Of a DNA stretch of 64,000 bases, positions 40,457 through 45,238 are shown one piece after another (the first letter of the stretch is position 1; each line of letters begins with the position of its first letter). The notes under the pieces are model-generated. The model saw only the letters and a list, made by a program, of their open reading frames with translations, was not told the origin of the DNA and did not search any database. Where the stretch lies: NCBI RefSeq assembly GCF_024502345.1, contig NZ_JALDNN010000001.1. One strand, 5' to 3'. The DNA is from Escherichia coli (GTDB lineage: Bacteria > Pseudomonadota > Gammaproteobacteria > Enterobacterales > Enterobacteriaceae). The translations under genes were made by a program, and so were the position numbers.

Positions 40457-41706
<1,250 letters not shown>

Positions 41707-41883
41707 TAAAGTAAGTAACTGGTTAATTTACATTCTGGTCGCGTGCGCAAATACGCTTTTCCTCACACAGTTGTCAAGTGTTACGTTTAGATAATTGCTA
41801 TCCGGAAAAGCATCTGCTATTTATAGCGGCCTCATTTTTCCCCCGAACATGGGGATCGATAGTGCGTGTTAAGGAGAAGCAAC

Positions 41884-42339
41884 ATGCAAGAAGGGCAAAA
41901 CCGTAAAACATCGTCCCTGAGTATTCTCGCCATCGCTGGGGTGGAACCATATCAGGAGAAGCCGGGCGAAGAGTATATGAATGAAGCCCAGCTGGCGCAC
42001 TTCCGTCGTATTCTGGAAGCATGGCGTAATCAACTCAGGGATGAAGTCGATCGCACCGTTACACATATGCAGGATGAAGCAGCCAACTTCCCGGACCCGG
42101 TAGACCGTGCAGCCCAGGAAGAAGAGTTCAGCCTCGAACTGCGTAACCGCGATCGCGAGCGTAAGCTGATCAAAAAGATCGAGAAGACGCTGAAAAAAGT
42201 GGAAGACGAAGATTTCGGCTACTGCGAATCCTGCGGTGTTGAAATTGGTATTCGCCGTCTGGAAGCGCGCCCGACAGCCGATCTGTGCATCGACTGCAAA
42301 ACGCTGGCTGAAATTCGCGAAAAACAGATGGCTGGCTAA
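41884..42339 (+). CDS. dksA: RNA polymerase-binding transcription factor DksA
   Basis: 151-aa product from the ATG at 41884 ([15 protein letters not shown]…); C4 zinc finger [25 protein letters not shown]. Confidence 0.97.
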
Positions 42340-42367
42340 TTACAGCCGTTCCATCACGTTTACCACA

Positions 42368-42395
42368 GGCGGGAAATGCTCCCGCCTTATTTTTT
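42368..42395 (+). terminator. intrinsic terminator downstream of dksA
   Basis: Hairpin GGCGGGA-aatgc-TCCCGCC followed by TTATTTTTT; the first in-frame ATG of the gluQ ORF lies in its loop. Confidence 0.7.
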
Positions 42396-43302
42396 GTTCA
42401 AAGAGATGACAGACACACAGTATATTGGCCGCTTCGCCCCCTCTCCTTCCGGCGAGCTTCATTTTGGCTCTCTGATCGCCGCGCTCGGCAGCTATTTGCA
42501 GGCTCGCGCCCGGCAAGGTCGCTGGCTGGTACGCATAGAAGATATCGACCCGCCTCGTGAAGTTCCCGGTGCCGCAGAAACTATCCTGCGCCAGCTGGAA
42601 CATTACGGTCTGCACTGGGACGGCGATGTTCTCTGGCAATCGCAACGTCACGACGCCTATCGTGAAGCACTCGCCTGGTTACATGAACAAGGACTAAGTT
42701 ATTACTGCACCTGTACGCGTGCGCGTATTCAAAGCATTGGCGGTATTTACGACGGTCATTGCCGGGTGTTGCATCATGGACCAGACAATGCCGCAGTGCG
42801 TATCCGCCAGCAGCATCCGGTCACGCAATTTACTGACCAGCTGCGCGGCATTATTCACGCCGACGAAAAACTGGTACGGGAAGATTTTATCATTCATCGC
42901 CGTGATGGGTTGTTCGCCTACAACCTGGCTGTTGTGGTTGATGATCATTTCCAGGGCGTTACAGAAATAGTGCGTGGGGCTGATCTGATTGAACCAACAG
43001 TAAGGCAAATCTCGCTGTACCAGCTTTTTGGCTGGAAAGTGCCAGATTACATTCATCTGCCGCTGGCGCTTAATCCACAAGGCGCTAAACTTTCCAAGCA
43101 GAATCATGCGCCTGCGTTGCCGAAAGGCGATCCACGCCCGGTACTAATCGCGGCACTTCAATTTCTGGGGCAGCAGGCAGAAGCACACTGGCAGGATTTC
43201 AGCGTCGAGCAAATCCTTCAGTCAGCCGTCAAAAACTGGACGCTGACCGCCGTGCCCGAGTCGGCAATTGTAAATTCAACATTCTCAAATGCGTCATGCT
43301 GA
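42376..43302 (+). CDS. gluQ: glutamyl-Q tRNA(Asp) synthetase GluQ (YadB)
   Basis: Truncated GluRS-like catalytic domain without an anticodon-binding domain; longest ORF is 308 aa from 42376; a downstream ATG at 42406 ([10 protein letters not shown]…, 298 aa) lies outside the dksA terminator and may be the real start. Confidence 0.88.
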
Positions 43303-43361
43303 GCTATGATTAGCCGCTATTTTTTTGTCCTGAATGATGTTTGACACTACCGAGGTGTACT

Positions 43362-44759
43362 ATTTTTACCCGAGTCGCTAATTTTTGCCGCAAGGTGCTA
43401 AGCCGCGAGGAAAGCGAGGCTGAACAGGCAGTCGCCCGTCCACAGGTGACGGTGATCCCGCGTGAGCAGCATGCTATTTCCCGCAAAGATATCAGTGAAA
43501 ATGCCCTGAAGGTAATGTACAGGCTCAACAAAGCGGGATACGAAGCCTGGCTGGTTGGCGGCGGCGTGCGCGACCTGTTACTTGGCAAAAAGCCGAAAGA
43601 TTTTGACGTAACCACTAACGCCACGCCTGAGCAGGTGCGCAAACTGTTCCGTAACTGCCGCCTGGTGGGTCGCCGTTTCCGTCTGGCTCATGTAATGTTT
43701 GGCCCGGAGATTATCGAAGTTGCGACCTTCCGTGGACACCACGAAGGTAACGTCAGCGACCGCACGACCTCCCAACGCGGGCAAAACGGCATGTTGCTGC
43801 GCGACAACATTTTCGGCTCCATCGAAGAAGACGCCCAGCGCCGCGATTTCACTATCAACAGCCTCTATTACAGCGTAGCGGATTTTACCGTCCGTGATTA
43901 CGTTGGCGGTATGAAGGATCTGAAGGACGGCGTTATCCGTCTGATTGGTAACCCGGAAACGCGCTACCGTGAAGATCCGGTACGTATGCTGCGCGCGGTA
44001 CGTTTTGCCGCCAAATTGGGTATGCGCATCAGCCCGGAAACCGCAGAACCGATCCCTCGCCTCGCTACCCTGTTGAACGATATCCCACCGGCACGCCTGT
44101 TTGAAGAATCGCTTAAACTGCTACAAGCGGGCTACGGTTACGATACCTATAAGCTGTTGTGTGAATATCATCTGTTCCAGCCGCTGTTCCCGACCATTAC
44201 CCGCTACTTCACGGAAAATGGCGACAGCCCGATGGAGCGGATCATTGAACAGGTGCTGAAGAATACCGATACGCGTATCCATAACGATATGCGCGTGAAC
44301 CCGGCGTTCCTGTTTGCCGCCATGTTCTGGTACCCACTGCTGGAGACGGCACAGAAGATTGCCCAGGAAAGCGGCCTGACCTATCACGACGCTTTCGCGC
44401 TGGCGATGAACGACGTGCTGGACGAAGCCTGCCGTTCACTGGCAATCCCGAAACGTCTGACGACGTTAACCCGCGATATCTGGCAGTTGCAGTTGCGTAT
44501 GTCCCGTCGTCAGGGTAAACGCGCATGGAAACTGCTGGAGCATCCTAAGTTCCGTGCGGCTTATGACCTGTTGGCCTTGCGAGCTGAAGTTGAACGTAAC
44601 GCTGAACTGCAGCGTCTGGTGAAATGGTGGGGTGAGTTCCAGGTTTCCGCGCCACCAGATCAAAAAGGGATGCTTAACGAGTTGGATGAAGAGCCGTCAC
44701 CGCGTCGCCGTACTCGTCGTCCACGCAAACGCGCACCGCGTCGTGAGGGTACCGCATGA
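43362..44759 (+). CDS. pcnB: poly(A) polymerase I, AUU (ATT) initiation codon
   Basis: 465-aa product if initiation is at ATT 43362..43364 ([11 protein letters not shown]…), the start reported for K-12 pcnB; the ORF track begins at an upstream TTG (43341); stop overlaps the folK start by 4 nt. Confidence 0.88.
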
Positions 44760-45238
44760 CAGTTGCGTATATTGCCATAGGCAGCAATCTGGCCTCTCCG
44801 CTGGAGCAGGTCAATGCTGCCCTGAAAGCATTAGGCGATATCCCTGAAAGCCACATTCTTACCGTTTCTTCGTTTTACCGCACCCCACCGCTGGGGCCGC
44901 AAGATCAACCCGATTACTTAAACGCAGCCGTGGCGCTGGAAACAACACTTGCGCCTGAAGAATTACTTAATCACACACAGCAAATAGAGTTGCAGCAAGG
45001 TCGCGTTCGTAAAGCAGAACGCTGGGGACCGCGCATACTCGATCTTGATATCATGTTGTTTGGTAATGAAACCATTAATACCGAACGACTCACCGTCCCG
45101 CATTACGATATGAAGAATCGCGGCTTTATGCTGTGGCCGCTGTTTGAGATTGCCCCGGAACTCGTGTTTCCTGATGGGGAGACATTACGTGAAATACTCA
45201 CTTCGCTAGCAGTACTACAACCTGCCATCTGGTATTAG
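44756..45238 (+). CDS. folK: 6-hydroxymethyl-7,8-dihydropterin pyrophosphokinase FolK, variant C-terminus
   Basis: 160-aa ORF matching HPPK through about residue 140 (…[13 protein letters not shown]) and then diverging from the K-12 tail as recalled. Confidence 0.9.

Follow-up and report, generated by a model that had tools for sequence, protein, structure and literature searches.

The intra-operon terminator of dksA-gluQ in Escherichia coli and the translation start of GluQRS

Introduction

The terminator T1 of Escherichia coli is an intrinsic intra-operon terminator, situated just 5' of the low-abundance dnaG with its unusual ribosome-binding site, and it keeps the expression of dnaG far below that of the upstream gene. 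In the recA-recX operon, expression of the second gene also involves a terminator, and we know of no start codon inside the hairpin of that terminator. T1, which precedes dnaG in the rpsU-dnaG-rpoD operon, has been cited as an analogue of the element between dksA and gluQ, and recX has been cited as a gene expressed only via ~10% read-through of the recA terminator (PMC3542578). The case of T1 and dnaG concerns other genes and another sequence, and it is likened to dksA-gluQ by description. In recA-recX, the likeness lies in the expression by read-through, although the locus is different. The preQ1 riboswitches of queuosine genes are comparable in another respect, as they place a terminator hairpin directly 5' of a queuosine-linked coding region. 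Unlike riboswitch or attenuator leaders, however, the dksA-gluQ element lacks an aptamer, a conserved alternative pairing and a match in Rfam.

The closest described system is the dksA/gluQ-rs terminator of Shigella flexneri (PMC3542578). It is the same element as the one described here: an AUG lies in the loop, read-through is partial and the protein has 298 aa. The window, by which we mean the whole 64-kb stretch of DNA that was analysed, belongs to an E. coli strain, for which the published evidence is found in PMC7815308 and PMC4909307, whereas the Shigella tests were plasmid-based. The terminator, its effect on gluQ and the true start of the gene are already known from work published between 2012 and 2021. 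The comparison of 80 species presented here (the best 80 of 300 matches) adds that the second in-frame ATG of gluQ (ATG#2) is present in all 80, that an in-frame ATG in the hairpin loop (ATG#1) is confined to a few Escherichia lineages, and that the stem is near-invariant.

The dksA-gluQ Locus

Positions ~41000-44800 of the window correspond to the sfsA-dksA-gluQ(yadB)-pcnB region of E. coli. A 1.8-kb query covering the locus was found in nearly all complete E. coli genomes (5,424 of 5,426). The features are the following:

41884-42339, + strand: dksA coding sequence, 151 aa, with the TAA stop at 42337-42339; from the ORF list and the mapped RefSeq annotation (locus 685-1140)
42340-42391, + strand: 3' UTR of the terminated (major) dksA transcript, 52 nt, bounded by the dksA stop and the Term-seq 3' end
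42367-42387, + strand: terminator hairpin, with an 8-bp stem AGGCGGGA / TCCCGCCT and the 5-nt loop AATGC
42368-42374 and 42380-42386, + strand: stem arms GGCGGGA and TCCCGCC, lengthened by the A42367/T42387 pair
42375-42379, + strand: hairpin loop AATGC, by direct reading
42376-42378, + strand: ATG#1, which lies in the hairpin loop and is the legacy start of the 308-aa form (ORF 42376-43302); unused
42388-42395, + strand: T-tract TATTTTTT, adjoining the stem on its 3' side, 7 of the first 8 nt being T, with the in vivo RNA 3' end (42391) inside
42406-42408, + strand: ATG#2, the next in-frame ATG, 10 nt beyond the T-run, opening a 298-aa ORF
42406-43302, + strand: gluQ (gluQRS/yadB) coding sequence in its translated form, 298 aa from ATG#2; from PGAP, PDB, TetRP ribosome profiling, N-terminal proteomics, Edman sequencing and conservation

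An earlier note, made from the sequence alone, had placed the hairpin, the T-tract, ATG#1 in the loop at 42376 and ATG#2 at 42406, with products of 308 and 298 aa, and all of these coordinates proved correct.

The gluQ product is assigned as GluQRS (tRNA glutamyl-Q(34) synthetase, YadB), since it matches curated equivalog models and a solved structure. It scores 622.7 bits against NCBIfam model NF004312 (cut-off 453) and 379.5 bits against TIGR03838 (cut-off 276.7). The PDB entries 1nzj and 4a91, which both contain the 298-aa sequence, match residues 11-308 of the long ORF (E = 3.6e-206). The same 298 aa are the NCBI PGAP call for gluQ in current RefSeq records. The K-12 reference NC_000913.3 (b0144), on the other hand, still gives a gluQ of 308 aa starting at the loop ATG, and NF004312 carries the N-terminal extension of this long form, which was judged spurious.

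The Terminator Hairpin and Its Conservation

Six of the eight stem pairs are G-C. The isolated hairpin has a predicted stability of -14.5 kcal/mol, and the minimum free energy fold of 42340-42420 includes it (z = -2.74). A permissive terminator scan returned 4 sites, against 4.3 expected, and was not discriminating; therefore, a stricter scan was written, covering both strands of the 64 kb and asking for stems of 7 or more pairs, 6 or more of them G-C, with T at 6 or more of the following 8 bases. Under these conditions, the window has 3 sites, whereas 30 dinucleotide shuffles gave 0.1 on average. The exact motif GGCGGGA-N3-8-TCCCGCC has a single copy in the window and occurs in none of 100 shuffles. 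Being unique in the window, it was rejected as a REP-like repeat. The hairpin was also rejected as a bidirectional terminator, as the minus strand carries no T-run there. On the same strand, an antisense ORF (42340-42651) and a terminator-like site (42347-42330) are at chance level and were discarded. With its stem-loop, its U-tract and an RNA 3' end found in vivo, the element is an intrinsic (Rho-independent) terminator.

One genome per species was scanned for the locus, and the best 80 of 300 matches, all from Enterobacteriaceae and with a GluQRS identity of 76-97%, were retained. A hairpin of the form GGCGGGA(G)-loop-(C)TCCCGCC is found in ~75 of these 80 species. Its six core pairs are essentially invariant among the best 80 of 300, whereas the loop differs between species in both length and sequence and the flanks show no conservation. 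RNAalifold, run on the 80-sequence alignment, placed the helix one register off because of the loop-length gaps, and an explicit structure was used instead. In the correct register, 94.9% of the cells of the stem alignment are paired (best 80 of 300 matches). A few compensated changes are visible at the ends of the stem, one being the replacement of A-U by G-C in Citrobacter amalonaticus-like species. As the core of the stem never varies, covariation gives little formal support; its statistics are unremarkable. The structure is thus supported by conservation and a few compensated end pairs rather than by covariation. The T-tract is less constant: in ~30 of the best 80 of 300 species it is weak (at most 4 T among the first 8 nt 3' of the stem), and the stem is still kept. 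Enterobacter and Lelliottia belong to this type, e.g., with GTTACCGTTGAT followed at once by the ATG.

Termination and Read-Through

Co-transcription of dksA and gluQ-rs was demonstrated by RT-PCR in S. flexneri by Caballero et al. 2012 (BMC Microbiol 12:226; PMC3542578). The terminator predicted there has a stability of -14.7 kcal/mol; its loop contains the first AUG, and the second follows 27 nt later. Terminators were also reported in Pseudomonas and Vibrio (PMC3542578). Fusions to lacZ were active solely when the dksA promoters were present, the promoterless pVCDT remaining at baseline, and the authors therefore concluded that gluQ-rs is without a promoter of its own (PMC3542578). Removal of the spacer with the terminator resulted in ~10-fold more reporter activity, and mutations disrupting the stem in a more than 2-fold increase in expression, values that were obtained on multicopy plasmids in S. 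flexneri and not on the E. coli chromosome (PMC3542578). As the stem mutants gave just over 2-fold and the deletion 10-fold, another element of the spacer may contribute.

For E. coli MG1655, the Term-seq data of Adams et al. 2021 (eLife 10:e62438; PMC7815308) contain a 3' end at 160097(-), with 3,097,035 reads on average in LB at OD 0.4. By way of the K-12 locus and its alignment, this position maps to 42391 of the window, within the T-tract. The end was scored 1.16 for Rho ('No') and 7.47 as an intrinsic terminator, and read coverage falls from 250 upstream to 62 downstream, or to 72 downstream in the presence of bicyclomycin (PMC7815308). The Term-seq check across dksA-gluQ that the earlier note had called for has, in this sense, already been published, and it places a Rho-independent 3' end where the hairpin predicts one. 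The same table labels the end as 'internal to gluQ, 15 nt from the start codon' (PMC7815308), because the K-12 annotation takes the loop ATG as the start. In a further E. coli Term-seq paper (PMC9023263), dksA is named in the reference list only.

Taken from these two sources, the fraction reading through the terminator would lie between ~10% (lacZ in S. flexneri, PMC3542578) and 25% (62/250 in coverage, PMC7815308), the coverage ratio combining termination with differences in RNA stability. The dependence of gluQ on read-through of the dksA terminator, which the earlier note had proposed, is supported by both the S. flexneri fusions (PMC3542578) and the MG1655 Term-seq data (PMC7815308).

A purely passive terminator does not explain one published observation. 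Spacer-containing RNA increased 20-fold in stationary phase, whereas the dksA and gluQ-rs amplicons changed 1.3-fold, and the authors raise the possibility of a factor binding the terminator (PMC3542578). The hairpin could accordingly be a regulated element, in which growth phase or stress sets the read-through via a stem-binding factor or an alternative structure. The near-invariance of the stem in ~75 of the best 80 of 300 species, next to a variable loop and variable flanks, would agree with this, as would its retention in the ~30 species with a weak T-tract. However, selection for hairpin stability alone would also yield an invariant G-C core, the covariation statistics are unremarkable, and the 20-fold value comes from end-point RT-PCR (PMC3542578). 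No conserved alternative pairing partner is apparent and the flanks are unconserved. With a permissive threshold, Rfam yielded a single chance match to a snoRNA (E = 0.22) for 41600-43500, and no riboswitch was found by Caballero et al. (PMC3542578). A riboswitch or attenuator was rejected on the grounds of the missing Rfam match and of the sequence 5' of the hairpin, which is not conserved across genera. Since selection for a G-C stem of maximal stability suffices as an explanation, regulated read-through is considered unlikely. Its most specific form, in which a protein or an RNA binds the conserved stem sequence-specifically and tunes gluQ read-through with growth phase or stress, is a decidedly long shot. 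If true, such recognition would explain the 20-fold rise of spacer RNA in stationary phase, and tuned read-through would couple the GluQ modification of tRNA-Asp to the operon of the stringent response.

It is improbable that gluQ has an additional promoter of its own in other conditions. A sigma-24 site predicted in RegulonDB is mentioned in PMC3542578, where few growth conditions were tested, and a weak sigma-70-like match is present at 42397-42426 of the window. On the contrary side, the promoterless fusion pVCDT stayed at baseline (PMC3542578), sigma-70-like matches occur at chance level (2 vs. 2.9 expected), and the 14-18 nt that separate ATG#2 from the terminator are too few to hold a promoter. 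The match at 42397-42426 was, hence, rejected: besides being at chance level, it would begin its transcript downstream of ATG#2.

The 3' end at 42391 could also result from 3'-exonuclease trimming of longer RNAs back to a stable hairpin. It lies just 4 nt beyond the 8-bp stem, which suggests some trimming, as intrinsic termination usually leaves 7-9 nt from the stem to the 3' end. Term-seq, moreover, is unable to tell trimming from termination. As the origin of the end, however, trimming instead of termination is very improbable: a canonical U-tract follows the stem and the site has an intrinsic terminator score of its own (PMC7815308), the disruption or deletion of the stem raises downstream lacZ transcription (PMC3542578), and the step in coverage from 250 to 62 is insensitive to bicyclomycin (PMC7815308).

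The Start Codon of gluQ

Edman sequencing of the purified S. flexneri protein gave the N-terminus that follows the second AUG, and it was therefore concluded that GluQRS has 298 aa and that the database start is wrong (PMC3542578). In E. coli, Nakahigashi et al. 2016 (DNA Res 23:193; PMC4909307) assigned yadB a new start at 160082(-), +30 nt from the annotated one, which corresponds to 42406 in the window. In the three samples of their TetRP ribosome profiling, the depth at the +30 ATG was 13.7/72.9/24.8, and at the annotated ATG, 0/0/0 (PMC4909307). COFRADIC N-terminal proteomics detected the peptide TDTQYIGR and no peptide of the long form (PMC4909307); its detection in only one of the six samples is attributed to the scarcity of the protein. 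The N-terminal sequencing suggested by the earlier note had thus been done before, and it identified the 298-aa form (PMC3542578).

The two start sites differ in structure and sequence context. On the read-through RNA, opening of the region from -15 to +12 would cost ~17.4 kcal/mol at AUG#1 vs. ~5.2 at AUG#2. The purines upstream of AUG#1 resemble a Shine-Dalgarno (SD) sequence (anti-SD duplex, -6.3 kcal/mol), but these same purines make up the 5' side of the stem. An SD is practically absent before AUG#2 (-1.7 kcal/mol), and the one of dksA is strong (-9.2 kcal/mol). This is a general trait: an SD-like sequence precedes the gluQ start in none of the 80 species and dksA in 79 of 79 (best 80 of 300 matches). 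SD-independent initiation takes place on unstructured A/U-rich leaders. The unstructured, U-rich leader is probably what permits initiation without SD at AUG#2, the U-rich tail of the terminator doubling, in all likelihood, as a ribosome landing site. On the terminated RNA, only 16 nt are left from the A of AUG#1 to the 3' end. Initiation at AUG#1 would, then, mostly place ribosomes on fragments without a stop codon, a further probable reason for its non-use.

Comparison between species agrees with the downstream start. An ATG is found at the position of ATG#2 in all 80 species (best 80 of 300 matches); in three of them, the position compared had to be moved by a few codons, as the tblastn match began at residue 2, 3 or 6. 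Just two of these best 80 of 300, E. albertii and Escherichia sp. E1V33, carry a loop ATG that is in frame with ATG#2 and open as far as that codon. E. whittamii (loop AATAC) and the divergent E. coli AF16 (loop ATTAC) have lost ATG#1 and kept the stem, and in Escherichia sp. MOD1-EC7003, a tail shorter by 1 nt puts the loop ATG out of frame. Similarly, E. fergusonii has the terminator without the loop methionine (PMC3542578). In-frame stops inside or 3' of the hairpin occur in 10 of the 80 species, and stem and ATG are separated by 10-49 nt, without adherence to multiples of three (best 80 of 300). Together with the loss of ATG#1, these stops and spacer lengths indicate non-coding evolution of the 30 nt that separate the two ATGs. 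Within E. coli, a 66-nt segment shows at least 99% identity in 4,673 of 5,424 genomes; ATG#1 is retained there because the species has diverged little and the hairpin is under selection.

The preference of the earlier note for 42406 over 42376 is, consequently, borne out by Edman sequencing, TetRP, the TDTQYIGR peptide, the PGAP call and the contrast between ATG#2 in 80/80 and the loop ATG in 2/80 species (best 80 of 300). Its other suggestion, that both starts are used depending on read-through, found no support, although minor use is conceivable. That a 308-aa isoform is made beside the 298-aa form on read-through transcripts is scarcely credible: ATG#1 is in frame and open behind its SD-like purines, is kept in nearly all E. 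coli and is still the K-12 RefSeq start, but it lies buried in the -14.5 kcal/mol hairpin, showed no TetRP signal against 13.7-72.9 at ATG#2 (PMC4909307), is without any N-terminus other than the TDTQYIGR type (PMC3542578, PMC4909307), and is absent or out of frame in E. whittamii, E. coli AF16 and Escherichia sp. MOD1-EC7003 and, overall, missing as an open in-frame codon in 78 of the best 80 of 300 species.

Proposed Mechanism

We consider it very probable that the element is the terminator already described within the dksA-gluQ operon, of the Rho-independent type, and that GluQRS is the 298-aa protein translated from AUG 42406. Transcription would start at the dksA promoters, and most RNA polymerases would stop at the hairpin and U-tract (42367-42395), leaving an RNA 3' end at 42391. 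The result would be an abundant monocistronic dksA mRNA, whose 52-nt 3' UTR ends in the hairpin. A minority of the polymerases, roughly 10-25%, an estimate rather than an exact fraction, would read through and carry the promoterless gluQ. On this read-through RNA, ribosomes would begin at AUG 42406, 15 nt past the termination point, in a site that is A/U-rich, weakly structured and without Shine-Dalgarno, and translation into the 298-aa GluQRS would be inefficient. Of this scheme, published experiments and the sequence show the hairpin with its T-tract, the 3' end in vivo, the independence of Rho, the need for the dksA promoters, the consequences of deleting or mutating the terminator and the N-terminus of the protein. 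AUG 42376 would be an Escherichia-specific accident of the loop sequence, unused, with its SD-like purines locked in the stem. The synthesis of GluQRS would thereby be tied to the transcription of dksA, at a much lower level, and the purpose of the terminator is probably to hold the ratio of GluQRS to DksA low.

Significance

The practical value of these observations lies in annotation: the start of b0144 should move to 160082(-). This change would also remove the false 'ORF-internal' label of the 3' end. The locus represents a clean textbook case in which a leaky terminator, combined with a start codon lacking a Shine-Dalgarno sequence, leads to a low expression ratio within an operon.

The dksA-gluQ Spacer in Other Genera

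The dksA-gluQ loci of 80 Enterobacteriaceae species were compared (one genome per species, the best 80 of 300 returned), and the sequences flanking the hairpin are not conserved. Only 10-12 nt, most often GTTACCGTTGAT, separate the conserved hairpin from the gluQ ATG in Enterobacter, Lelliottia and related genera, and the T-tract in this stretch is poor. These short-spacer loci are L031, L043-L047, L059, L061, L062, L064, L066, L070, L071, L073, L078, L079 and L081 (locus positions ~2462-2500). Judged from its sequence, this arrangement looks like a weaker terminator whose hairpin has been retained nonetheless. Across the whole set, four or fewer T residues are present in the 8 nt 3' of the stem in 30 of the 80 species.

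Four Kosakonia loci (L042, L050, L053 and L069) have tandem hairpins in the spacer: just upstream of the conserved hairpin, ~45-70 nt before the gluQ ATG, lies a second strong, G+C-rich one, for example GGCGCACCGC-TAAGGT-GTGGTGCGCC (-20 kcal/mol). A diverged form of the hairpin, GUCGGGGAAAAUUUCCCGUA, is present in L026, L029, L035 and L065 (Phytobacter, Kosakonia sp. S29 and one metagenome-assembled genome); it is weak, at -6.7 to -8.1 kcal/mol, and TATTGTCGGCGTTTCC follows it without a clear T-tract; from these features, the terminator may have been largely lost in these lineages.

The sfsA-dksA Spacer

A sequence scan identified a terminator-like hairpin on the other side of dksA:

41814-41839, sfsA-dksA spacer: hairpin CTGCTATTTATAGCGG followed by CCTCATTTTT

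In the Term-seq data of Adams et al. 2021 (PMC7815308), one condition gave 48,011 reads for an "orphan" 3' end at MG1655 160652(-). This corresponds to window position 41836, which lies within the dksA promoter/leader region, 48 nt before the ATG. The hairpin may terminate sfsA transcripts, or it may halt transcription from the upstream dksA promoters.

Annotation of gluQ and pcnB

The 308-aa form of gluQ is still present in the K-12 reference (NC_000913.3 159186-160112; 687-1613 in the K-12 locus L002). The alignment of NCBIfam model NF004312 (306 positions) begins at residue 5 of this long form of GluQRS; the model was therefore built from sequences carrying the spurious N-terminal extension. 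The alignments of NF004314 and TIGR03838 start at long-form residues 11-16. The GluQRS encoded by the window (42406-43299) shows two residue differences from the K-12/PDB sequence, one in EKL(A/V)RED (A to V) and one in KNW(R/T)LTA (R to T), so the window does not come from K-12. Among the matches listed, strain FDAARGOS_943 is the best (99.9%).

For pcnB, the start annotated by PGAP and in K-12 is an ATT codon at 43362-43364, which we take to be the non-canonical AUU initiation codon documented for poly(A) polymerase I. The ORF listing places it elsewhere, at a TTG at 43341.

Translation Initiation at gluQ

Folding of the read-through RNA, which passes the dksA terminator into gluQ, predicts weak pairing at window 42388-42408 between the U-tract UUAUUUUU and AAAGAGAU(G). 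This pairing covers AUG#2, the start codon at 42406 (probability unpaired 0.12), with an opening cost of only ~5 kcal/mol. The sequence of this terminator tail is not conserved in other genera. In the 18 nt that precede the gluQ start codon (window 42388-42405), an anti-SD duplex of -4.4 kcal/mol or stronger was found in none of the 80 Enterobacteriaceae species (L004-L083), and in the same comparison, the dksA start is preceded by a Shine-Dalgarno sequence in 79 of 79. Judged by these duplex energies, initiation of gluQ without a Shine-Dalgarno sequence is a conserved trait across the 80 species.
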